This document shows, piece after piece, positions 2,771-61,991 of a stretch of 64,000 nt of DNA. The position numbers were made by a program, and so were the translations under genes. The DNA is from Thermoplasmata archaeon (GTDB lineage: Archaea > Thermoplasmatota > Thermoplasmata > RBG-16-68-12), in contig DASPZJ010000021.1 of assembly GCA_035636315.1 (NCBI GenBank), positions 1,667 to 65,666 of the forward strand. Direction: 5' to 3'. A model generated the notes under the pieces. That model was not told where the DNA came from. It saw only the letters and a list, made by a program, of their open reading frames with translations, and made no database searches. The first letter of the stretch is position 1, and every line of letters begins with the position of its first letter.

Positions 2771-3088
2771 AACTCGCAAATCGCCTCAAACCCGAAAATT
2801 CCAACCTGAGTCATTTTCGACGAAACAGGCTCTTTGCACAAAGTATCGGGACGGGCTGCAATCCCTCGAAAATCAAGGAATATGCAGAACGGTTCGAGCG
2901 ATCCATGTTCAGTTTGTCCAAGATGTCGATTCGGGAATTTGTCGCAAGCATCCAAACGGCCCAGAGAAACCTAGTCGCCCATCACTTTTGGGATTTGCCA
3001 CTCAGATCGCCCATCATTCATCACAGGTCAGCGTCGGTTCAATCATCACGGTGGCGGCCGAACAAGGGCCCCCTCGCTGAAAGGTTTT

Positions 3089-3961
3089 GTGTCGGAGCCC
3101 GAGCCGACGACACCTATATCTCCGGCCCTCCGCTTGGGCCGTTCGGTGGAGCCTTCGGCGGTGGTGGTTCGCATCGAAGGGGTCCTCGCGGACCTCGTGC
3201 AGCCGGCCGACTACGTCCGCTGGGAGTACCTGTCCCGCCAGCGTCTCCTGGCGACCCAGATTACGAGCTTCCGCGATCACGCCTCGCCGCGGGTCCTCGA
3301 CATCGGATGCGGCAATGGCGCCCTCTCCCTGGCCCTCTCGGAGGCCGCGGGGTTCGACCTCGTCGCGATGGACATCCTCCCCCTCCGCACCTCCGTGGTC
3401 CAGGCCCGGAAACGAGGCCGCGCGAGGGCGGCCACCCTCCACGTCCTCCTCGCGAACGCGGAGAGAGGCTTGCCTTTCCGGGACGAGACGTTCGACGCGG
3501 TCGTCGCGACGGAGGTCCTCGAACACCTCGACAAGCCGGTCCGGTTGCTCGGTGAAGTCCACCGGGTCCTGCGACCTGGAGGCCGTTTCTTCATGACGAC
3601 ACCCAACGCCGACGCCCTCCCGTACCGACTGTTGAGGTTCCTTCCGGACTCCGTCGTGCGCAACCTGGCAGGACCGCTGACGCACGGGGCCCTCCATCCA
3701 GAGCTCCTCCACGACGCCTCGCACGCGACGACGCCGAACCATCCCGACGAGCATCGAAGGGAGGGATTCACGCTATCGGAACTCGAGTCGCTCGGGGCCA
3801 TGACCGGCTTGCGGGTCATCCGGCGCTTCACATACCGCATCCCGCTCCCCGACCGACTGATGAACGCGGTCCCCCGGCGCCTCTCGCGACGGCTCGCGGT
3901 CCTCGGGACCCGACCCCTGCCGATGGGCCTCCAACTGTACGCGGAGTTCGAGAGAGCGTGA
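3089..3961 (+). CDS. Class I SAM-dependent methyltransferase
   Basis: Motif I VLDIGCGNGALS, an acidic post-motif (DLVAMD), and a DAVVATEVLEHL motif. GTG start. Confidence 0.8.
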   Translation: MSEPEPTTPISPALRLGRSVEPSAVVVRIEGVLADLVQPADYVRWEYLSRQRLLATQITSFRDHASPRVLDIGCGNGALSLALSEAAGFDLVAMDILPLRTSVVQARKRGRARAATLHVLLANAERGLPFRDETFDAVVATEVLEHLDKPVRLLGEVHRVLRPGGRFFMTTPNADALPYRLLRFLPDSVVRNLAGPLTHGALHPELLHDASHATTPNHPDEHRREGFTLSELESLGAMTGLRVIRRFTYRIPLPDRLMNAVPRRLSRRLAVLGTRPLPMGLQLYAEFERA

Positions 3962-5398: not shown

Positions 5399-8300
5399 TT
5401 GCAGGAAGAGAAAGGCTGGCTCCATGCCCATTGGCGGACGGGCCTCATCCTCGTGCTGATCTTCGGCGTGGCCCTCTTCGTCCGTGTGTATTTCGTCTAC
5501 GGCCTCTCGTTGGCGACCGCGGCGCCCTCGCAGTGTGACGCGAACTACGTTCCGACATACTCCGGCGGGTCCGACTCGTACTACTGGGACCGCGCCTTAT
5601 GTTATTCCTTCCAGACCGGCAAGGACCTCGGGACCGACCGGATGCTGAACTACCCGGTGAGCTTCCCGAATCCGAGGCCCCCCCTCTTCCCGTGGTTCTC
5701 CCTACTCGTCGGCCGAGTCCTTGCCCCGCTCTTCAACAATGCCTGGGACGCCGTCTACTTCGTGTTCCTCCTCTCGTCGGGCTTGTTCGGGGCGCTCATC
5801 GTGTTCCCGACGTATGCCATGGGCAAGGAGGCGTTCGGCCGGAAGGCCGGGTTGATCGGCGCGCTCCTGATCGCGATCAGCGTCGGCAATCTTCAGAGGA
5901 GCAACTCGACGGACGCGGACCATGACGCGTTCACCCTCTTCTTCGTCGTATCGACGTTCTACTTCTTCCTCCGCGCTCTCAAGACGATGAAGGGCCGGCG
6001 CTGGGTCGAGAACTGGTTCCAGCGGGAGTCGATTTCCGCCGGGTTCGGCGGGTTCTTCCGAGAGAACCGGACGAGCGTCCTCTACGCCTTGCTGGCGGGC
6101 CTCTGCGTCACCGTGATCGCGCTGGCATGGCAAGGCTGGGCGTATGTCAGCGTGATCCTGCTCGTCTGGTTCGCCGCGGAGATGTTCGTCGATCGCTTCC
6201 GCAACGAAGACCCGATGGGCGCGTGGATCCTGTTCACGATCGCCCTCGCGACGCCGATCCTCCTCGCGTTCCAGTGGTACTACGTGCGGAACAACATACG
6301 CGTCTGGTTCGACGTCCCGGCGTACCTCTTCCTCGCGTCGATCGTCGTCGGCTTCGCCTTCACCGTCACGCGCGACTACCCGTGGACCCTCGTGATCCCG
6401 AGCACGCTCATCGCCGGCGCCGTCGGCCTGGCGGTCGGCGTCGCCGTGAACCCGACCCTCGCGAGCGCCTTCGTCACCGGCGCGGGCTACTTCATCCAAT
6501 CCAAGCTCGTCACGACAATCGCAGAGGACCAGGCGCCCGGGATGTCCCAGCTGATCCTGAGCTTCGGCCTCTTCACGTTCGGCATGAGCCTCCTCGCGAT
6601 CGCGTACATGCTGTGGCAGATCCCGCGGCGGCGCGAGCCCGCGTACCGGATCGCAGTGATCTGGACGTTCGTCGCCGTCTTCATGGCGATCACCGCGGCG
6701 CGGTTCATCTTCAACGCTTCCCCCGCGTTCGCGATCGCCGCCGGGTATGCGATCGACCTGGTCCTCGTCCGGGCGGACTTCGCGGGCATGCGGCGCACGT
6801 ACCGCTCGCTCGCGGAGGGCAACTGGCGCAACGCCGTTCGGAAGTCCCTGAAGGTGCGGCACGTCCTCGCCGCCCTCGGCGTGGTCTTTCTCGTCCTCGT
6901 GCCGAACGTCTGGTTCGGGCTCGACGCGGCGATTCCGTTCGAGCTGAAGGCGCAGTACGACCGACAGGTCGCCTCGACCCTGCCGTCGTTCCTCCGCGCC
7001 CCGAGCTACAACCCGAGCAGCAACAGCCCATTCTACTTCGGGGCGTTCGGGTACGCACTGCCGAAGCCGACCGACTACTATCCCGCCGCCTGGACGTGGT
7101 TCCGCACGCAGGACGCGGACGAACCGCCGGAGCTACGGCCCGCGTACCTCTCGTGGTGGGACTACGGCTTCGAGGCGGTCGACCGGGGCGCCCATCCGAC
7201 CGTCGCGGACAACTTCCAGAACGGCTACGCGCTCGCCGGCCAGTTCATCACCGCGCAGAACGAGACGCAAGGCATCGCGCTGCTCGCGGTCCGCCTCATC
7301 GAGGGCGACTTCCGGGCGCACAGCCTCACGATCGGACCGGAGGTCCGGGACATCCTGACGGCGTACGGCATCTCGGCGGACACCTTCGCCGCGGTCCTCG
7401 GCCATCCGAACGTCTACGTGGCCGTCGTACTCGCGGACCCGGTGACGTACGGCGTCTGGGACTCGAACATGCATCCGCTCAACGCGCAATACATCCTGCT
7501 GTCGCACCTCCTCACCGCCCGCTTCGGCGAGGAGCGGATGGTCGACCTGTACCACGCCCTCCGGGACGCGACGGGCACGGACATCGGCTACTTCGCGGTC
7601 GACTCGCGCTTGTTCCCGATCAACGCGCAGAACACGGGCATCTTCTACGCGCCCGTGAAGCTCTCGGATCACCGGGTCATCCAGCTGGCGGACGGCCGCG
7701 TCCTCGCGCCCGACTTCTTCCAGATCTTCGTGAACACGACCCGGGCGACGAACATCCAGATCCAGTTCCTGCAGCCCGGGGACCAGGTTCGGTCCTCGCG
7801 GATCGCGTACCAGCCGGCCTTCTACAATTCGATGTTCTACCGCGCGTACGTCGGGTACTCTCCGACGGAGCTCGGCTTCCCGAACAACCCCGCCATCCCG
7901 GGACTCGATCCGGGGATGCAGTCGTTCCCACCGGTGCCCGCGTGGAACCTGACCCACTGGCGGGTCGTCTATCGTACGTCGTACTACAACCCGTACCTGG
8001 ACGTGTCGAACCACACGGACGCGTGGCAGGCGATGAACTACCTCGACGCGCAGAAGAAGCAGGCGGACATCCAGGCGGGGAAGATCAAGGGGACCGCCGA
8101 CCTTAGCACAATCAGCAGCATCGCGAGCGGCGTCGTCTTCTTGCGGTACTACGACGGCGCTTGGGTCAACGGGACCGTGTCGGCGGACTCCGTGCCCCTC
8201 GCGGGCGTGAACATTACCGTGACGGACGAACTCGGCACGCCGCACTACCGGACCGCGACGGATGCGAGCGGGCACTACAGCGTCCTCGTGCCCTTCGGCA

Positions 8301-11300
8301 ACATCACGATCACGGCGTCCGTCGGGAGACCGTCGACGAACATGGTCGGGACTCGCACCCTCGCGACGGCCACCCTCGCGGTGTCCGAGGACCAGGCGAT
8401 GCGCGTGCCCGCCGACTCCGACGGCGACGGCGTCCCGGACTGGATCATGACCCGGGACCTGCACGTCCCCGCGCACTCGGAGAGCGGCACGCTCTACTTC
8501 GACCTGGACCGGAACAGCGCCTTCCAAGGGGGCGACGTGGTCCTCCCGGGCGCCGTCCTCACGTTCACGGACAAGGAGTTCCCGTATCAGCGGACCGTCA
8601 CGAGCCGGCCGGACGGCTCCTTCACGGTCTCGACCTTGCCGCCCGGGACGTACGCCCTCACCGTGCAGGCGAACGGACGGACGGTCCGTGCCGCCGACGG
8701 CACGATCGGGACGGCGGACGTGACGGCGAACGTCGCGGTTCCTTATGCGGGCATAAAGGGCCTCGCGACCTCAAGCCTCGGCGGATCGGTCGCGGGCGCG
8801 ACGATCGACGCGGTCGATGAGACGAACGGGACGACGTTGCGCTTCACGGCGGGCAGCGACGGATCGTACGCGCTGCGACCCTTGATGGCGGGGAACTACA
8901 CCCTCACGGCAGCGTCCGGCAATCTCGCATCGAATCCCACCCTCGTGCGCGCGGCGAACGTCGACGTCTGGCTCAACCTGACGCTCCGGCCATCGGGCAC
9001 CGTGGCGGGCACGACGACCGTCTTCGGGACGGCCCGGCCGTTCGCCAGCCTCGAATTCCAGTCCGCGATGGATCCGTCGATGGTCCGCACGGTCACGTCG
9101 GACGCGTCCGCCCGATACGCGATCCGCCTTCCGGCGGGAGAGTGGTTCGTCAGCGGACGCTCGTACGACGGCACGACGCTCTACGCGACGTTGGGGCGAG
9201 TCCTCGTTGCCGCAGGTGCCACGAGCTCCCTCGACATCATGTTCGTCCAAGGCGTCCGGGTCACGGGCACCGTCTTCGATCCGAATCCGGCGGTCCGGAA
9301 TCCGCAAGCCGCCGTGGCCTTCGCGAACGGCGCAGGCCAGCGGTGGCTCACCACGAGCGGGACCGGTGGCTACCTCGCGCTCCTGCCCGTAGGCACGTAC
9401 GACCTCCAGGCGTTCAACGCCGTCGCGGCCTCGTTCGGGTCCATCGCCCTGCTTACGAGCCAGACGGTCGACATCCGGCTGGTCAACGCCTCGGAGGCGG
9501 TCGGGGGTTCCGTGTACCGCGACATCGACGGAAACGGGGCGCTCAATCCGGGCGAAGCGATCGCCGGCGCGCGCATCGCCCTGACGGACGACACGGGGGC
9601 GCACGTCTCGCTGACGACGAACGCGACGGGCGGGTTCTCCGTCCCCCTCTTCGGGAACCACACCTACGCAGGCTCCGTGTCCGCCGCAGGGTTCGAGACC
9701 CGCGCGATCCCGGCGTCGTCGCCGGCGAGCCTCCGAACGCTCTTGCCGATCGCCCTCGTCCCGACTCCGGTCGCCGTCCAAGGGAGCGTGGTCCTGAACG
9801 GCGCCCCGCTCCTGAACCGACCCGTCACGGTCCGCGCGGTCGCGATCGGCGAAGGCGCGGTCACGCAGACGACCCTCACGGACTCGAACGGCGGCTACGG
9901 CTTCCGCCTCGTCCCGGGGACGTACGATCTCCTCGTCGACGAGAACGTCTCGACGACTCGGGACTGGCGTTACCAGAACGCGGGATCGGACGGCATCGAG
10001 GTGTCCGTCGCCCAGGCGTCCCTCGGCTACGACATCGCGATCGTCACCCGCACCCGAGTGACGGGGAGCGTCACCTTGTCCGGGGTCCCGCAGTCCGCAT
10101 CGCTGTCCTTCGACGGCCCGGAGCACCGCACCGCGGAAGCGACGACGGCCGGGTTCGAGGTCTACCTCGTGCCCGGATCCTACGCCGTCTCCGGGAGCAA
10201 ACAGATCGTCCCGGACCGGTACTCGTTCATCTCGACCGCCACGGTGCCTGCGGCGAACCTCACGTACGCGCTCGTGAAGGCGACTCGCGTGGCCGGACAC
10301 GCGCTGTTCAACGGCGCGGGCGTCGTCGGGCCCATGCCCGTCTCGTTCGCGCGCGCGGAAGGCGGCCGGGTGAACGTCTCGACGGATTCGGCCGGCGCAT
10401 TCGCCGCGTACCTCGTCCCGGGCAACTACACCGTCACGTTGACGGGGACCAACACGGCGACGGAGTCGGGCGCGCCGCGCTTCTACACGTACGCCTTCAC
10501 GGGCGGCCTCACGGTGGCACCGGGGGCGGCCGATATCGCGTTCAACCTGTCCGTCTCGAGAGACCTTGACAACACGACGGTCTCCGGAATCGTGAGCTTC
10601 GGCGGGTTCGGCGTCGACACGACCGTGACGTTCACCGCTCGGGGAGGCGGCGCGGTCGCCGCGACAACGTCGTCCGCGTCGAACGGCTCGTACTCGGTGG
10701 GCCTCGCGCCGGGCACGTACGACGTGTACGCAGCGCGCTCCCTCGGAAGCGCCGTCTCGTTGCTCCGGATCACCGTTCCGCACGCGGCCCAGGACACCCG
10801 GAACATTCCCCTGACGAGCGGGTTCATCCTCTCCGGCGTCACGACGAACGCGCAGGGCGCGCGGACGTCCGCCTCGATCGCGATCCAGTCCGCCGCCGTC
10901 CTCGACCTGACGTCGGACGGGAGCGGGTCGTACTCGACCGTCCTGCCGGCGGGCGTCTACGCCGTCTCGGCGACGAAGACGGGCACGGAGAACGGGATCT
11001 CCGTGACGTACCAGACGGCGACCTCGGTCGCGCTGCAGTCGGACACGGTCGCGAACCTCGCCCTCGAGAAGGTCGTCTCGCGCTCCGTGGTCCTGTCGTG
11101 GGACGGGTCCCAGCGGCAGACGATCTCCGCCGGCTCGTCGGTCACCTACACGATCGTCGTGCGCAACACGGGCAACGTCGCCGACACCTGGTCGCTCTCG
11201 GGCCGTCCGGCCGACTGGGAGGTCTCCTTCGTCCCGTCCACGGTCTCGCTGAACTTCGGGACCTCCGGCACGAGCGCGGCGGTGGTCGTCACGCTCACGA

Positions 11301-11902
11301 GCCCCGCGGACGCCCTCGTGGACCACGGCACGATCACCCTCGTCGCAACGTCGACGACGGACGGCACGACCCAGGGCAGCGTCGACCTCCAAGTCGACAT
11401 CGTCCGAACCCGGGGCCTCTCCCTGTCCCTCGACCCCACCTCGGGCGTGTTCGACGGCCGCTTCCTGAACTATACGCTCACGATCACGAACTCCGGAAAC
11501 GCCGCCGAGACGGTCAACGTGGAGATCACGAACCCCGATGACCTCGCGGCGAACGGCTGGATCGCCCGGCTCGGCACCACGGGCGGGGCGGCGACCGACA
11601 TCCGCCTTTCGGGCGTCTCGGTCCCGGCGAACTCGACGACGAAGGTGCGCCTCCAGTCGCAATCGTCCGGCGGCGCGAGCGGCGCGACCGTGATCGTCCG
11701 AGCGTCCGCGCAAGACTCGATGGCGGTCTCCTCGACGGGTTTCTTCACGCTCCAGATGCCGGTCCTCGCCACCGGCCCCATCACGGTTGGCGGGCCGAAC
11801 ATCGCCCGCGAAGCGCCGCTCAACCTGCAGCTCCTCGCGGCCGTCGTCGCCGCCGTGGCGGCGGTCGGAGCGGGGCTCTTCCTGACCCGCCGGAGGCGGT
11901 GA
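5399..11902 (+). CDS. aglB: Archaeal oligosaccharyltransferase AglB (STT3 family) fused to ~10 CarboxypepD_reg-like beta-sandwich repeats and a C-terminal TM anchor (2167 aa)
   Basis: Multi-TM N-terminal region, GGSDSYYWDRA loop motif, WWDYG catalytic motif (LSWWDYGFEAV). The C-terminal ~1250 aa contain repeated G.V.D..G.P..GA.V...T.T...G.Y units with many N-x-S/T sequons. Ends with LLAAVVAAVAAVGAGLFLTRRRR*. TTG start. Confidence 0.9.
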   Translation: MQEEKGWLHAHWRTGLILVLIFGVALFVRVYFVYGLSLATAAPSQCDANYVPTYSGGSDSYYWDRALCYSFQTGKDLGTDRMLNYPVSFPNPRPPLFPWFSLLVGRVLAPLFNNAWDAVYFVFLLSSGLFGALIVFPTYAMGKEAFGRKAGLIGALLIAISVGNLQRSNSTDADHDAFTLFFVVSTFYFFLRALKTMKGRRWVENWFQRESISAGFGGFFRENRTSVLYALLAGLCVTVIALAWQGWAYVSVILLVWFAAEMFVDRFRNEDPMGAWILFTIALATPILLAFQWYYVRNNIRVWFDVPAYLFLASIVVGFAFTVTRDYPWTLVIPSTLIAGAVGLAVGVAVNPTLASAFVTGAGYFIQSKLVTTIAEDQAPGMSQLILSFGLFTFGMSLLAIAYMLWQIPRRREPAYRIAVIWTFVAVFMAITAARFIFNASPAFAIAAGYAIDLVLVRADFAGMRRTYRSLAEGNWRNAVRKSLKVRHVLAALGVVFLVLVPNVWFGLDAAIPFELKAQYDRQVASTLPSFLRAPSYNPSSNSPFYFGAFGYALPKPTDYYPAAWTWFRTQDADEPPELRPAYLSWWDYGFEAVDRGAHPTVADNFQNGYALAGQFITAQNETQGIALLAVRLIEGDFRAHSLTIGPEVRDILTAYGISADTFAAVLGHPNVYVAVVLADPVTYGVWDSNMHPLNAQYILLSHLLTARFGEERMVDLYHALRDATGTDIGYFAVDSRLFPINAQNTGIFYAPVKLSDHRVIQLADGRVLAPDFFQIFVNTTRATNIQIQFLQPGDQVRSSRIAYQPAFYNSMFYRAYVGYSPTELGFPNNPAIPGLDPGMQSFPPVPAWNLTHWRVVYRTSYYNPYLDVSNHTDAWQAMNYLDAQKKQADIQAGKIKGTADLSTISSIASGVVFLRYYDGAWVNGTVSADSVPLAGVNITVTDELGTPHYRTATDASGHYSVLVPFGNITITASVGRPSTNMVGTRTLATATLAVSEDQAMRVPADSDGDGVPDWIMTRDLHVPAHSESGTLYFDLDRNSAFQGGDVVLPGAVLTFTDKEFPYQRTVTSRPDGSFTVSTLPPGTYALTVQANGRTVRAADGTIGTADVTANVAVPYAGIKGLATSSLGGSVAGATIDAVDETNGTTLRFTAGSDGSYALRPLMAGNYTLTAASGNLASNPTLVRAANVDVWLNLTLRPSGTVAGTTTVFGTARPFASLEFQSAMDPSMVRTVTSDASARYAIRLPAGEWFVSGRSYDGTTLYATLGRVLVAAGATSSLDIMFVQGVRVTGTVFDPNPAVRNPQAAVAFANGAGQRWLTTSGTGGYLALLPVGTYDLQAFNAVAASFGSIALLTSQTVDIRLVNASEAVGGSVYRDIDGNGALNPGEAIAGARIALTDDTGAHVSLTTNATGGFSVPLFGNHTYAGSVSAAGFETRAIPASSPASLRTLLPIALVPTPVAVQGSVVLNGAPLLNRPVTVRAVAIGEGAVTQTTLTDSNGGYGFRLVPGTYDLLVDENVSTTRDWRYQNAGSDGIEVSVAQASLGYDIAIVTRTRVTGSVTLSGVPQSASLSFDGPEHRTAEATTAGFEVYLVPGSYAVSGSKQIVPDRYSFISTATVPAANLTYALVKATRVAGHALFNGAGVVGPMPVSFARAEGGRVNVSTDSAGAFAAYLVPGNYTVTLTGTNTATESGAPRFYTYAFTGGLTVAPGAADIAFNLSVSRDLDNTTVSGIVSFGGFGVDTTVTFTARGGGAVAATTSSASNGSYSVGLAPGTYDVYAARSLGSAVSLLRITVPHAAQDTRNIPLTSGFILSGVTTNAQGARTSASIAIQSAAVLDLTSDGSGSYSTVLPAGVYAVSATKTGTENGISVTYQTATSVALQSDTVANLALEKVVSRSVVLSWDGSQRQTISAGSSVTYTIVVRNTGNVADTWSLSGRPADWEVSFVPSTVSLNFGTSGTSAAVVVTLTSPADALVDHGTITLVATSTTDGTTQGSVDLQVDIVRTRGLSLSLDPTSGVFDGRFLNYTLTITNSGNAAETVNVEITNPDDLAANGWIARLGTTGGAATDIRLSGVSVPANSTTKVRLQSQSSGGASGATVIVRASAQDSMAVSSTGFFTLQMPVLATGPITVGGPNIAREAPLNLQLLAAVVAAVAAVGAGLFLTRRRR

Positions 11903-34683: not shown

Positions 34684-35733
34684 ATGCTCGAACCCGGGGA
34701 GGTCGCCCGGATCGATCCCGACGGGATGCGGGACATCATCGCCTCATTGCCGGAGCAGCTCGAGGCGTCCCTGCGGCTCTCCCCCCAGGCCGGCTTCGAC
34801 GCGGGGGACGCGCAGCGGGTCTTCGTCGTCGGCATGGGCGGGTCCGCGATCGCGGGAGATGTGTTCGCGGCGTGGGTCGCGGACCGGGCGAAGGTACCGA
34901 TCCAGGTGGTGCGCGATTACCGCCTGCCGTCGTACGCGCGGCCCGAGGACGTCTTGGTCGCCGTGAGCTACTCCGGGAATACGGAGGAGACGATGAGCGC
35001 GGCGATGCAGGGGATGAAACTCGGCTGTCGGATGGTCGCGGTCACATCCGGAGGCTCGCTACGGGACCTCGCCCGGAAGAACCGCGTGCCGATCGTCGAC
35101 GTTCCGACCGGACTCCCTCCCCGCGGCGCGTTCGGCCATCTGTTCGGGGTCCTGCCCGCGATCGGCGAGTCGTGGGTCGTCGGGCCGCTCCGTGCCGAGC
35201 TCGAGGATTCGATCGACCACCTGCGCAGACTCCGGAAGCGGTTGCGCCCGGAGACCGCCGCTCGTTCGAACCGAGCGAAGAGCCTCGCGATCCGCTTGCG
35301 CAGCACGGTTCCGGTCCTCTATGCGACCGCGCCCTTCACCCCGATTGCGAAACGCTGGCAGACGCAAATGAACGAAAACGCGAAGATGCTCGCGTTTTCC
35401 TCCGCCTTGCCCGAGGCCGACCACAACGAAATCGTGGGATGGTCCGAAGACGCGCGGGCCCGCCGCCACACGCCGATCGTGCTCCGCGATCGGGACGAAC
35501 CCCCGGAGATCCGTCGGCAGCTCGACATCACGGTCGAACTCATGTCCCGCCGCGCCGCCGCGATCGAAATCAAAGCGGAAGGCGAAAGTCTCCTCAGCCG
35601 CCTCCTCGGCACGTTGTACCTCGGGGACTACGTGAGCTTGTATCTCGCGGCGCTGCGGCGCGTCAACCCGATGCCGCTCCCTCCGATCCTGGAGCTCAAG
35701 AAACGCCTCGCGCGGGGACGCCGAAAAAACTGA
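34684..35733 (+). CDS. Bifunctional phosphoglucose/phosphomannose isomerase (SIS-domain archaeal PGI/PMI family)
   Basis: SIS motifs VFVVGMGGSAIAGDVF and LVAVSYSGNTEET, plus a C-terminal PGI/PMI-type domain. Confidence 0.7.
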   Translation: MLEPGEVARIDPDGMRDIIASLPEQLEASLRLSPQAGFDAGDAQRVFVVGMGGSAIAGDVFAAWVADRAKVPIQVVRDYRLPSYARPEDVLVAVSYSGNTEETMSAAMQGMKLGCRMVAVTSGGSLRDLARKNRVPIVDVPTGLPPRGAFGHLFGVLPAIGESWVVGPLRAELEDSIDHLRRLRKRLRPETAARSNRAKSLAIRLRSTVPVLYATAPFTPIAKRWQTQMNENAKMLAFSSALPEADHNEIVGWSEDARARRHTPIVLRDRDEPPEIRRQLDITVELMSRRAAAIEIKAEGESLLSRLLGTLYLGDYVSLYLAALRRVNPMPLPPILELKKRLARGRRKN

Positions 35734-35734
35734 A

Positions 35735-35853
35735 CGCCGAGGGGGAGACTTTCAGGCAGCCGTCACATGAGCGGCGGGAGCCATTTGAACTCCCGAGGAC
35801 TTGCGCCCACCAGCTCTCCAAGCTGGCGCCCTACCGGACTAGGCGACCTCGGC
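35735..35853 (-). tRNA. tRNA-Ser (anticodon GGA) with a long variable arm and an apparent 35-nt intron within the T-loop (position 59/60 or 60/61)
   Basis: Manual cloverleaf on the minus strand: acceptor GCCGAGG/CCTCGGC; D-arm GCCT-AGTCCGGTA-GGGC; anticodon arm CCAGC-TTGGAGA-GCTGG (U33, GGA, purine 37); V-arm GGGC-GCAA-GTCC; T-stem GGGAG + TTCAAAT. The matching CTCCC-CCTCGGC-G resumes 35 nt later (35748..35782 is the putative intron). Discriminator G73, then an oligo-T tail. TATA-like tttatta sits ~30 nt upstream (35883..35889). Confidence 0.6.
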
Positions 35854-35903
35854 ACCCAGCGTCGCGCCCATCCTATCCGTCGTAATAAAGGATTCTCCGA
35901 AGC

Positions 35904-37037
35904 TCACACGCGCGCCGCCGCGAACGCCCGCGCCGACTCGACCCGCTCACGTCCCGGGGGATGGCTGTAAAACAGCCACTTCTCCCAGCGCCTCGGATCC
36001 GCGACGCCGAGGTTCCGGTCGTGCAGCCGGACCATCGCGGCCGCGAATGCGGCGGAATCCCCAGTCAGCTCGAGCGCGAACCGATCGGCCCGCGACTCCC
36101 GTCCACGAGACCACCGCAGCTGCAGGGGGCCGAACGGAAGGGCCACAAGGCTGAAGAGGACTGCGAGCCACGGCAGTCCCGCGATATCGCCGGCCGACGG
36201 AATCCCGAAAGAGGCGCGCGTCGCATCGTAGAGCCACGCCGTGACCGCGACGATCGCCAGGGATGCGAGCGAGCCCTGGAGCAACCCCCAGAGCGGATCG
36301 AGGCGGCGTTGATGAGCGAGCTCGTGCCCGAGGACCGCATCGACCTCCTCGACCGAAAATTCCGCCAGGAGGGTGTCGGTGACGACGATCCGGCGCGTCC
36401 GACCGAACCCCATCACGGCGGCGTTCGACCGCCTCGTCTTCGGCGATGCCTCGAGCACGAAGGCGCCCATCACAGGCACGCCGGCGCGCGCCGCGAGCGA
36501 GGCGAACCGATTCCGGACGCTCACGTCCTGAATCGGCCGGACACGGTAGAACAGCGGCACGAGCACGATCGGCGCGAGGAATCCGATTCCAAGCGAGGCC
36601 GCGACGCCGAGGATCCACGCGACGAGCCACCACCAATGGGTGGCCGCGAGCAACCACAGCAGCCCCCCGCCGACGACGAGGGTCGAGGCGAGCCCGAGAG
36701 CGAAGGACTTCGCGAGGTCCTTGAGCCAACCGCTCAGGCGCTGGCGGGACAACCCGAAGGCACGCTCCCACCGGAATCCGCCGACGTAGGCGAACGGGAG
36801 TTCCGCCGCGGCGAAGGCGCCGAAGAGGATGGACAGGGATGCCCCCGCGGAGGCCCAGCCCGGCCATCCGAGTCGGAGGACGGAATCCCGCAAGGACGCT
36901 GCGCCTCCCGCCACGAGGGCGGTCGCGAGGAGACCGATCGCGGCCCCGTGGATAGCGCGCAGGACGAGCCGCTTCGACCGAAGGCGGCGGGCGACGACCT
37001 GCCGGTCCACGTCGAAGCCCCATGCGTCGACGCCCAT
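35904..37037 (-). CDS. M48-family zinc metalloprotease (HtpX/Ste24-like) with N-terminal TM region
   Basis: HELAHQ (HExxH) motif, downstream E/H motifs, several N-terminal TM helices. Confidence 0.8.
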   Translation of the reverse strand: MGVDAWGFDVDRQVVARRLRSKRLVLRAIHGAAIGLLATALVAGGAASLRDSVLRLGWPGWASAGASLSILFGAFAAAELPFAYVGGFRWERAFGLSRQRLSGWLKDLAKSFALGLASTLVVGGGLLWLLAATHWWWLVAWILGVAASLGIGFLAPIVLVPLFYRVRPIQDVSVRNRFASLAARAGVPVMGAFVLEASPKTRRSNAAVMGFGRTRRIVVTDTLLAEFSVEEVDAVLGHELAHQRRLDPLWGLLQGSLASLAIVAVTAWLYDATRASFGIPSAGDIAGLPWLAVLFSLVALPFGPLQLRWSRGRESRADRFALELTGDSAAFAAAMVRLHDRNLGVADPRRWEKWLFYSHPPGRERVESARAFAAARV

Positions 37038-37040
37038 CGC

Positions 37041-37994
37041 TCACTTCCAGAGCTTCGGGTACGTCCCCGGGTCCATGAGCACGCGGGCCGTGTCCGCCGC
37101 CGCCCCCGATTTCGCGACGACGATTTCGTCCGTCGTCATGAGCGCCTTCGATACCGCGACCGCCTCGCCCTTCCCCGTGAAGAGGCCCAGCAGGTCGCCG
37201 CGGCGGATGTGCGGCGAGAGCTTCGCGACGCCTGGCACCATGAGGTTCGCACCGTGGCAGATCGCGTCGACCGCGGTGTCTTTGATGACGATTCGCGGCA
37301 GGTGCCGCAGGAGGTCTTCCATGGGTCGCACGATCGCCCGGATCGCGGTCTCGTCCCCCTCCCGCCAATAGGCGATGGCGTCGCGGAAGGCGTTCAACGG
37401 ATGCGCGTCGGCCTCCGAGAACGACGCCGTGCGCGTCCGCCGCAGGTCGACCATGTTCGCGCCGATGCCGAGCGCCTCGCCCACGTCGGAGCACAGCGTC
37501 CGGATGTATGTCCCGGATTCGCACCGTACACGGAAGAGGACGTTGCGGCCTTCGATCTCGAGCGGCTCGAACCCGTACACATGGCGGGTCCGTTGCTCCC
37601 GCTTGACGGCCGAGCGCACCGGAGGGGTTTGATAGATCTCGCCGACGAAGCGGCCCATCATCGCGCGCACCTTCCGCTCCTCGACGTCCTGGTGGAGCTG
37701 CAACACGCCGACGTATTCCTTGTCCCCGGCCAGCAGCGCCTCGAGCGCACGCGTTGCGTCGGCGAGGCCGACGGGGAGCACGCCGGTGACGCGCGGATCC
37801 AGGGTGCCCGCATGGCCCGCCTTCGGGACTCCGAACATGTCCCGTACCCAAGCGCTCACCTGGTGGGACGTCGGTCCGGCCGGCTTGTCGACGACCGCCA
37901 GGCCCCGGCGGATCTGCTCCTCGATCGAACGATCCTCCGGCCGCTTCCCATGCTTCGAATCGGGTGTCTCGTGGAGGACGACGAGGTCGCTCAT
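37041..37994 (-). CDS. cbf5: H/ACA RNP pseudouridine synthase Cbf5 (TruB family) with PUA domain
   Basis: GLAVVDKPAGPTSHQV, GHAGTLDPRVTGVLPVGL (catalytic Asp), C-terminal PUA domain. ATG at 37994. The 160-aa R/G-rich N-terminal ORF extension is rejected. Confidence 0.85.
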   Translation of the reverse strand: MSDLVVLHETPDSKHGKRPEDRSIEEQIRRGLAVVDKPAGPTSHQVSAWVRDMFGVPKAGHAGTLDPRVTGVLPVGLADATRALEALLAGDKEYVGVLQLHQDVEERKVRAMMGRFVGEIYQTPPVRSAVKREQRTRHVYGFEPLEIEGRNVLFRVRCESGTYIRTLCSDVGEALGIGANMVDLRRTRTASFSEADAHPLNAFRDAIAYWREGDETAIRAIVRPMEDLLRHLPRIVIKDTAVDAICHGANLMVPGVAKLSPHIRRGDLLGLFTGKGEAVAVSKALMTTDEIVVAKSGAAADTARVLMDPGTYPKLWK

Positions 37995-38530
37995 CCCCCC
38001 ACCCGCGCCGCGATCGCCGCGACGATCTCGTCCGGCGTCTTGCGCCCGGAATCCAGAACCAGGTCGAAGATTCGGGTGTCGCGCAGGTCGATCCCGTAGA
38101 TCTGACGGTACCGGACGCGCTCCGAGCGCTCTCGCGCGACAATCTCCCGCTCCGCGTCCTGGACGCTCTTCCCCTCGCGCGTCGCAATCCGTTGGGCCCG
38201 CACTGCTAGGGGGGCGTCGATCAGGACCTTGGTGCAGGGGATGCCCTGCTTCGCGAGGAGATACGCTTGGATGCGGCCGTCCACGACGACGCTCGCTCCG
38301 GACGCCTCCTTCGAGAGGATCTCCTCCAGGACCGCGGCGTCGAGCGCGTTGTCGATCGCCGGATCCGCCTCGGCCGCCTTGCCGAACGCCTCGAGGCTCA
38401 TCCCGCGCTCCTTCGCCATCGCGCGGAACCGCATGCCCGCCGACACGAGGACGTAGCCTCGGGCCGCGGCCCACCGCTCGGCGACCGTCGTCTTGCCGCT
38501 GCCGGGCGGGCCACCGACCGCGAGGATCAT
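37991..38530 (-). CDS. cmk: Archaeal cytidylate kinase
   Basis: MILAVGGPPGSGKTTVAERWAAARGYVLVSAG P-loop. Size ~180 aa. ATGA overlap with the cbf5 start. Confidence 0.85.
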   Translation of the reverse strand: MILAVGGPPGSGKTTVAERWAAARGYVLVSAGMRFRAMAKERGMSLEAFGKAAEADPAIDNALDAAVLEEILSKEASGASVVVDGRIQAYLLAKQGIPCTKVLIDAPLAVRAQRIATREGKSVQDAEREIVARERSERVRYRQIYGIDLRDTRIFDLVLDSGRKTPDEIVAAIAARVGG

Positions 38531-61613: not shown

Positions 61614-61991
61614 ATGCGCCACGAAGGGCTCCGCGGTCCGATGGTCAAGCGCCGCCATCGGGGCATGGAGCGGCGGATCGCGCTCGAGCGGATGACGTCC
61701 CTGTTCCGCCTGGCGGAAGAGGAGGCGCTCCAGCGCCACACGGACCGCGCACGGCGCTACGTCGAGCTCGCGCGGCGCATCGGCATGCGGTACAACGCCC
61801 GGGTGCCCGCGGCCTTCAAACGGTCGTTCTGCAAGAAGTGCCTCGCGTTCCTCCTGCCGTCGGTCAGCGCGCGGGTCCGCGTCGGCCGCGGGCGCGTCGT
61901 CGTCACGTGCACCGCGTGCGGAGCCGTCCAACGGTATCCCTACCGACGGGAGCAGACGGCGCGGCGTGCCGCCCGCGCCCGGCGTCAGTAG
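61614..61991 (+). CDS. rnp4: RNase P protein subunit Rpp21/Rpr2 (Rnp4)
   Basis: ERRIALERMTSLFRLAEE, RYVELARRIGMRYNARVPAAFKRSFCKKCLAFLLPSVSARVRV..GRVVVTCTACGAVQRYPY (zinc ribbon). Alternative start at 61641. Confidence 0.75.
   Translation: MRHEGLRGPMVKRRHRGMERRIALERMTSLFRLAEEEALQRHTDRARRYVELARRIGMRYNARVPAAFKRSFCKKCLAFLLPSVSARVRVGRGRVVVTCTACGAVQRYPYRREQTARRAARARRQ

Follow-up and report, generated by a model that had tools for sequence, protein, structure and literature searches.

A class II tRNA-Ser(GGA) gene with a predicted 35-nt intron in the T-loop from a soil Thermoplasmata archaeon

Does the 170-nt gap between two convergent protein genes of a soil Thermoplasmata archaeon hold a functional tRNA gene that is interrupted within its T-loop and, if so, at which position and by what kind of splice motif? 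Within a 64,000-nt stretch of DNA (the window), the gap is bordered by the 3' ends of two genes whose identity Pfam confirms, one for a PGI/PMI-type SIS protein (34684..35733, plus strand; stop at 35733) and one for an M48 protease (35904..37037, minus strand; stop at 35904). A first-pass annotation had described a type II tRNA on the minus strand of this gap, and each of the sequence elements that it listed was found. On sequence evidence, our analysis confirms that positions 35853..35735 (minus strand), which fill part of the gap, are best read as a class II tRNA-Ser(GGA) gene with a 35-nt T-loop intron. In the full account, to which we assign a probability of roughly 0.88, this is a functional tRNA-Ser(GGA) whose T-loop intron would fold into a strict bulge-helix-bulge (BHB) motif and be cut out by EndA, the exons then being joined by RtcB.

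Read from 35853 to 35735 on the minus strand, the gene is composed of GCCGAGG UC GCCU AGUCCGGUA GGGC G CCAGC UUGGAGA GCUGG U GGGC GCAA GUCC UC GGGAG UUCAAA (UGGCUCCCGCCGCUCAUGUGACGGCUGCCUGAAAG) U CUCCC CCUCGGC G, with the intron given in parentheses. The acceptor strand GCCGAGG (35853..35847) is perfectly paired with CCTCGGC (35742..35736), G73 occupies 35735, the D-arm (GCCU/GGGC) contains A14 and G18G19, and the anticodon loop reads U32 U33 GGA G37 A38, with GGA at 35819..35817. The variable arm, GGGC-GCAA-GUCC, consists of a 4-bp stem and a tetraloop. All of the features expected of a class II tRNA-Ser are present, namely a long variable arm, G73, GGA, A14, G18G19 and U54U55C56. In the T-arm, GGGAG (35794..35790) and UUCAAA (positions 54-59) are followed by 35 nt and only then by U-CUCCC (35748..35743). 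Exon 1 (70 nt; 35784..35853, minus strand) comprises tRNA positions 1-59, as delimited by the sequence and by the ARAGORN cloverleaf of the spliced form; the intron (35749..35783, minus strand) lies between positions 59 and 60, at the same site as its homologues; and exon 2 (14 nt; 35735..35748, minus strand) consists of U60, CUCCC (35747..35743), CCUCGGC and G73. A permissive Rfam scan returned no other tRNA-like match in the 64-kb window. The PGI/PMI gene ends with TGA at 35731-35733 (plus strand), 1 nt from the discriminator base of the tRNA, and the two genes abut likewise in most related loci.

Relatives of the locus were gathered through the M48 protease, which yielded 5 loci in species-representative genomes (MAGs titled Thermoplasmata, Thermoplasmatota or 'Methanobacteriota' archaeon) and 80 in soil metagenomes. 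For the protease encoded in the window itself, at least four independent assemblies were found, two of which cover the tRNA and are identical there. A tRNA-Ser(GGA) lies just downstream of the M48 gene in 76 related loci (77 with the window), and it takes three forms. T-type genes, which carry the T-loop intron, number 30 complete and 3 contig-truncated copies with the window included (29 and 3 in 32 other contigs); their introns are 32-35 nt long and sit at the same site, and they follow M48 proteases that are only 55-92% identical. A-type genes lack the T-loop intron and instead have a canonical 37/38 intron of 20-26 nt; they occupy 42 loci (L001, L004-L006, L010, L012-L014, L022, L024-L031, L034-L037, L041-L046, L048, L049, L051, L052, L065-L069, L071, L073-L075, L080 and L084), with L081 a further, contig-truncated example. 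Finally, L070:2704-2787, from a distant lineage whose M48 protease is 52% identical, is an intronless tRNA-Ser(GGA) with a T-type body and the CCAGC/GCTGG anticodon stem; it may have lost the intron or may preserve the condition that preceded intron gain.

Alignment of the 20 distinct T-type sequences was unambiguous; averaged over all pairs, they are 96% identical in the exons and 85% identical in the intron. Exon 2 is invariant in all 20, and exon 1 is invariant except at D-loop positions 16/17, at position 32 and at variable-arm positions. Within the variable arm, pair 48:55 covaries through five pair types.

When the intron is removed in silico, ARAGORN returns a flawless 84-nt class II tRNA-Ser(gga) with a 7-bp acceptor stem and a 7-nt T-loop, and the predicted spliced junction reads ...GGGAGUUCAAA joined to UCUCCCCCUCGGCG; the 84-nt species that had been anticipated for the spliced tRNA is thereby recovered at the level of prediction. 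Applied to the unspliced DNA, the same program calls a tRNA-Ser(gga) of 82 nt at 35768..35849 that loses four 5' nucleotides and contains two acceptor mismatches and a 9-nt T-loop, whereas the Rfam tRNA model matches 35791..35853 with 31.3 bits, against a gathering score of 29. Both tools match the locus, each with a distorted, unspliced model. Unspliced genes score 31.3-31.8 bits with the Rfam model, as opposed to 54.3 for the intronless orthologue L070. If the ARAGORN call were taken at face value, the real tRNA would be the 82-nt reading (35849..35768), in which a CUCCC that does occur in the intron serves as the T-stem strand and GCCGCUC as the 3' strand of the acceptor stem. We consider this reading barely credible: in addition to its mismatches and enlarged T-loop, it contains two G-U pairs and a truncated 5' end, its pairing is destroyed by 3-nt deletions and substitutions in L015-L017, L019 and L023, and the acceptor strand used by the intron-bearing model, 35 nt downstream, is invariant in relatives. 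Nor do we give any appreciable weight to the proposal that there is no tRNA here and that the hairpins form a bidirectional terminator between convergent genes. The location between the 3' ends of the PGI/PMI and M48 genes and the T-run that follows would suit such a terminator; it would not account for the full class II architecture with its identity elements, anticodon loop and covariation, nor for the Rfam tRNA match and the conserved upstream TATA box.

With the interrupted tRNA as the preferred reading, the exact junction can be considered. The first-pass annotation had left the choice between 59/60 and 60/61, and the window sequence alone cannot separate the two, since a U flanks both junctions: an intron at 60/61 (exon 1 ending in UUCAAAU, intron GGC...AAAGU) would give the same mature sequence. 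The relatives differ at precisely this point. The nucleotide after A59 (alignment column 71) is T in 14, C in 2, G in 1 and A in 3 of the 20 distinct sequences, next to invariant columns 69-70, and the last intron nucleotide (column 105) is G in 15, T in 3 and C in 2, next to an invariant column 106 (U60). In other words, A58, A59 and U60 do not vary, and the bulge nucleotides adjoining both cuts are among the most variable positions of the intron, in keeping with a lack of constraint on the third position of one bulge and the second of the other. An intron at 60/61 is therefore very improbable: in L021, L023, L050, L060, L062 and L079, A59 is followed by C, G or A while the U before CUCCC is constant, the tRNAs of these relatives would receive an 8-nt or altered T-loop, and the cuts would fall off the symmetric bulge positions. 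Because the nucleotide after A59 varies among U, C, G and A while U60 is invariant, the comparison of sequences settles the predicted junction at 59/60, and the first of the two original options stands and the second falls. One T-type locus, L009, carries an 8-nt tandem duplication (TCTCCCCC TCTCCCCC; L009:2790-2811) at the junction of intron and exon 2, which may be a variant with an altered 3' splice context or may simply reflect misassembly.

A BHB at the junctions had been set as the test of the T-loop intron, and a strict hBHBh' motif can be formed exactly at both. The outer helix h is the T-stem itself, GGGAG/CUCCC (35794..35790 with 35747..35743). The central helix H comprises 4 bp, UUCA/UGAA, in which U54 U55 C56 A57 (35786..35789, minus strand) pair with the intronic UGAA (35754..35751), the latter strand being supported by pairing in homologues. 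The inner helix h' joins GGC (35780..35782) to GCC (35757..35755), as found independently by RNAfold and RNAalifold and by pairing in homologues. Two 3-nt bulges, AAU and AGU, lie on opposite strands of H: the 5' splice-site bulge (35783..35785) consists of A58, A59 and the first intron nucleotide U(i1), with the predicted cut after 35784, and the 3' bulge (35748..35750) consists of A, G and U60, with the predicted cut after 35749, both cuts being placed by BHB geometry and by column variation. In a BHB, EndA cleaves each bulge between its second and third nucleotides, and this geometry leads to the same 59/60 site. By direct energy evaluation, the BHB conformer has a free energy of -21.1 kcal/mol, 0.3 kcal/mol above the minimum (-21.4 kcal/mol); RNAfold and RNAalifold predict the acceptor stem, the T-stem that spans the intron and the inner helix, and leave the 4-bp H open. 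Relaxed variants of the motif (hBH, HBh' or BHL), which would need an EndA of broad specificity, are ruled out by the presence of both bulges and both flanking helices.

Across the 20 distinct sequences, the specified structure is paired in 98.9% of cells, compared with 37-54% when the partners are slid. Helix H is paired in 98.8% of cells, with U-A to U-G changes in six sequences and a single A-G mismatch (in L015), and h' is paired in 100%, the changes there being G-C to G-U and C-G to U-G. No two-sided compensatory change was seen in the BHB helices among these 20 modestly diverged sequences, as would be expected for H, because its exon strand is the invariant T-loop. The comparative support for the BHB lies in conservation and in changes compatible with wobble pairing. 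Chance and artefact are excluded as the source of the tRNA with its intron, because only 0.065% of 200,000 shuffled introns give H and h' in the same register, because the T-arm and intron are identical in two independent ENA assemblies, and because homologous introns occur in 32 other contigs.

The intron was also considered as a possible carrier of a box C/D sRNA, as in archaeal tRNA-Trp introns, or of a K-turn, and both were rejected since the boxes are not conserved: UGAUGA occurs in only a few homologues (L023, L053, L060 and L062), the window has AUGUGA, and CUGA alternates with CUGG. In addition, 35 nt are too few for box C/D guide regions. Elsewhere in the window, a candidate box C/D sRNA lies at 3000-3053 (minus strand), just upstream of a methyltransferase gene (3089-3961), with C, D', C' and D boxes in the order GUGAUGA...CUGA...GUGAUGA...CUGA; in Rfam it matches sR2 best, although its 36.4 bits fall short of the gathering score of 42.

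A TATA-like element and an oligo-T run flank the tRNA. Within the 50-nt spacer past the M48 stop codon there is a TATA-like box, TTTATTA (35883..35889, minus strand), which ends 30 nt before tRNA position 1; this box was correctly placed at about 30 nt in the first-pass annotation, is kept as the motif ggaatctttattacgacg across the tRNA loci of the clade, and would serve as a promoter. The oligo-T tail noted at the same time is a T6 run (35724..35729, minus strand), which lies 5 nt beyond the discriminator; it overlaps the end of the convergent PGI/PMI coding sequence and is the reverse complement of the final Lys-Asn codons there. Oligo-T runs are archaeal terminators, and this one is the likely transcription stop. 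The tRNA itself would be in demand: among the serine codons of 15 confident window genes, UCC ranks second in use, at 14 per 1000 codons, so that a G34 serine tRNA is needed.

What distinguishes the A-type genes from T-type ones is more than the position of the intron. As exemplified by L001, L004, L005 and L012, they share with the T-type gene the isoacceptor, the slot, the T-arm, the 3' end and a strict BHB geometry, and differ from it in intron position, anticodon stem (CGGCG/CGCCG versus CCAGC/GCUGG), variable arm and usually the acceptor stem, of which five variants occur among A-type genes; the introns show no significant similarity. The two are alternative genes and not one gene whose intron has slid. 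In a neighbour-joining tree of M48 proteases the two types are intermixed, and this holds even for the clade with 85-92% identity to the window, where the window's T-type locus groups with L001 and L006 (A-type) and with L007-L009 (T-type).

Traces of the T-type gene are found beside its counterpart. In 24 of the 42 A-type loci, the host promoter and leader are retained together with the opening 14-31 nt of a T-type gene (GCCGAGGTCGCCTAGTCCGGTAG, with 0-7 mismatches), 27-56 nt upstream of the complete A-type gene, as in L005:3665-3687, L069:2685-2707, L024:2685-2708, L025:2687-2717, L010:2684-2697 and L012:2763-2785. The break in these fragments falls nearly always near tRNA position 23/24, and the spacers that follow belong to a few partly homologous families. 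At the other end, L080:3041-3085 holds a decayed 3' remnant of a T-type gene (TCCCGCCGCTCGCGTGACGGCTGCCTGAAAATCTCACCCTCGGCG) about 250 nt downstream of the A-type gene and ahead of the PGI/PMI flank; since this remnant contains most of the T-loop intron, the gene that was replaced there already had it. Short remnants of the T-type 3' end are also present in L010, L031 and L041/L042. The reverse arrangement, A-type fragments flanking T-type genes, was sought as a test of the direction of replacement and was not found. Extra DNA of 57 to about 1,800 nt separates the tRNA from the PGI/PMI gene in several loci, with insertions of 57-1,155 nt in both T- and A-type loci (L017, L025, L034, L035, L047 and L079). 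The 1.8-kb insertion of L001 contains a 446-aa TnpB-like ORF (L001:5672-7012, minus strand; OrfB_IS605 and Cas12f1-like TNB domains by Pfam), and a stretch of about 250 nt in L010 shares the first ~90 nt of the L001 insertion (L010:2866-2955), without the ORF.

These remnants bear directly on the possibility that the T-type gene in the window is a pseudogene, killed in its T-arm by a 35-nt insertion while a working tRNA-Ser(GGA) is encoded elsewhere in the genome. Such a reading could draw on the different, complete tRNA-Ser(GGA) with a canonical intron in relatives and on the proneness of the locus to insertions and replacements. We nevertheless judge it improbable, given that the exons are invariant or covarying in 20 distinct sequences and across M48 lineages down to 55% identity, that the insertion always retains a strict BHB in register, and that the promoter is conserved. 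Moreover, neither the 30 complete T-type loci nor the 64-kb window contains a copy or fragment of the canonical-intron gene, and true remnants of the T-type gene decay visibly: the truncated copies beside A-type genes have 0-7 mismatches in 23 nt that are invariant, apart from D-loop positions 16/17, in full-length T-type genes. That remnants decay and full-length copies do not is a sign of selection on the gene with the intron. Taken with the covariation, this contrast argues for purifying selection on that gene, which would, for that reason, be expressed and spliced.

Taking the T-type gene as functional, how could two alternative genes come to share one slot? The decaying T-type fragments point to gene replacement rather than intron sliding, and the lack of significant similarity between T- and A-type introns gives no indication of sliding or transposition. 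Two specific origins of the T-loop intron were not supported by local alignment, in which 242-2423 of 3000 shuffles scored as well: derivation from a duplicated tRNA 3' end (suggested by the CUCCC-GCCGC within the intron) aligned no better than shuffles, and transposition from the sister canonical intron found no significant similarity between T- and A-type introns. For a viral or element origin, exact scans of IMG/VR with the 23-nt 5' fragment and with a degenerate pattern of T-arm plus intron returned nothing. The simplest reading would be that the T-type gene is the older resident, that an A-type cassette disrupted it, and that the haplotypes have since been exchanged by recombination. A broader version, in which the slot between the M48 and PGI/PMI genes is a site where an essential tRNA gene is recurrently replaced through a cassette of promoter-like spacer plus A-type gene, is one that we put forward as speculative and on balance doubtful.

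How, then, would the T-loop intron be removed? Transcription from the gene's own TATA promoter would yield a precursor that consists of a leader and about 119 nt, in which U54-A57 would pair with the UGAA near the 3' end of the intron to form the strict hBHBh'. EndA would cut 3' of A59 and 3' of the final intron G, each of which is the second nucleotide of its bulge, and an RtcB-type ligase would join A59 to U60, producing an 84-nt class II tRNA with a normal UUCAAAU T-loop that would decode UCC and UCU. As U54-A57 would be paired in the precursor, formation of the T-loop and of the D/T elbow and modification of the T-loop would have to await splicing. EndA and an RtcB-type ligase are, to our knowledge, universal in archaea; Pfam scans of the 58 ORFs of the 64-kb window found neither. 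Cleavage by the archaeal splicing endonuclease followed by RtcB ligation is the most likely mechanism, and agrees with what is known of the enzyme: archaeal EndA recognises the BHB regardless of the domain of the mature tRNA in which it lies (PMC8707768), a canonical BHB is cleaved by all EndA architectures (PMC8707768; PMC6379350), and within the Thermoplasmatales, the homodimeric EndA of Ferroplasma acidarmanus cleaves minimal BHB substrates (PMC8707768; PMC6379350).

Several other features of the window may be recorded here. Cbf5, a TruB/PUA pseudouridine synthase, is encoded directly upstream of the M48 protease (37041-38474, minus strand), and an RNase P subunit of the Rpr2/Rpp21 type lies at 61614-61991 (plus strand), 26 kb from the tRNA region. 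The remainder is a core archaeal segment with genes for exosome subunits, proteasome alpha, SBDS, MetRS, FtsZ and L37ae. At 5399-11902 (plus strand) there is a very long ORF (2,167 aa; strong GC3 bias, 0.93), which is followed by a CARDB-domain protein.

From a practical perspective, the gene is one that bacterial-style tRNA finders mis-call, as seen in the distorted 82-nt ARAGORN model and in the generic Rfam model that barely passes, and genomes of this clade would therefore seem to have a defective UCC/UCU tRNA or none; tRNAscan-SE 2.0 in its default archaeal mode would be expected to find it. From a biological perspective, the locus offers a well-supported example of a euryarchaeal intron that has a strict BHB and lies outside the anticodon loop, and since the strict motif is compatible with an endonuclease of narrow specificity, the site of an intron need not follow the type of enzyme. 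With the 76 related loci there is also a natural comparison of two intron positions and one intronless form of the same tRNA at the same site, which could inform the gain, loss and exchange of tRNA introns. If the reading of recurrent replacement is true, intron position would shift by replacement of whole genes and recombination instead of by sliding or transposition, and the T-loop intron might persist by altering the gene as a target of recombination or integration.

Marck and Grosjean in 2003 and Sugahara in 2008 are said to have described non-canonical BHB introns in archaeal tRNAs. Position 59/60 is on the list of non-canonical tRNA intron positions, and BHB introns at this position are known mostly from the Crenarchaeota/Thermoproteales, Thaumarchaeota and Nanoarchaeota (PMC4090602); T-loop BHBs are also mentioned in reviews (PMC6379350; PMC8707768). 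Reviews place the introns of Euryarchaeota essentially only at 37/38 (PMC4090602 among them). The first-pass annotation had likewise stated that introns of the present kind are reported mainly outside Euryarchaeota, which holds as a trend (PMC4090602) and overstates their rarity, for they have already been documented inside the group (PMC8450103, Table S7). The tRNAscan-SE 2.0 survey counted 25 non-canonical introns in 6,970 euryarchaeal tRNA genes from 144 genomes, of which seven fall in orders of the class Thermoplasmata: six in three genomes of Methanomassiliicoccales and one in five genomes of Thermoplasmatales (PMC8450103, Table S7). For a tRNA-Ser T-loop intron in Thermoplasmata we found no description among the papers searched, only counts at the level of clades.

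Set against the known 59/60 introns, the present example is similar in position, in a BHB that pairs exon with intron, in the shortness of the intron, and in the presumed use of EndA and a ligase. It differs in its Thermoplasmata host, in which such introns are rare, and in its strict hBHBh' motif as opposed to the relaxed hBH or HBh' forms that are common in Crenarchaeota, so that no broad-specificity (alpha-beta)2 or epsilon2 enzyme would be needed. The Thermoplasmata-class introns counted with tRNAscan-SE 2.0 share its class and feature, although that table gives counts only, without isotypes or positions, and the clade described here is an uncultured soil group represented only by MAGs. 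The BHB processing sites of archaeal rRNA precursors, and BHB introns engineered into mRNA hairpins, demonstrate that a strict BHB is cut by EndA in any RNA context, as a T-loop BHB requires (PMC8707768; PMC6379350). Those substrates are not tRNA bodies, whereas here the BHB would sequester U54-A57 and block the T-loop before splicing. Compared with these systems, the gene is rare for its lineage and mechanistically ordinary.
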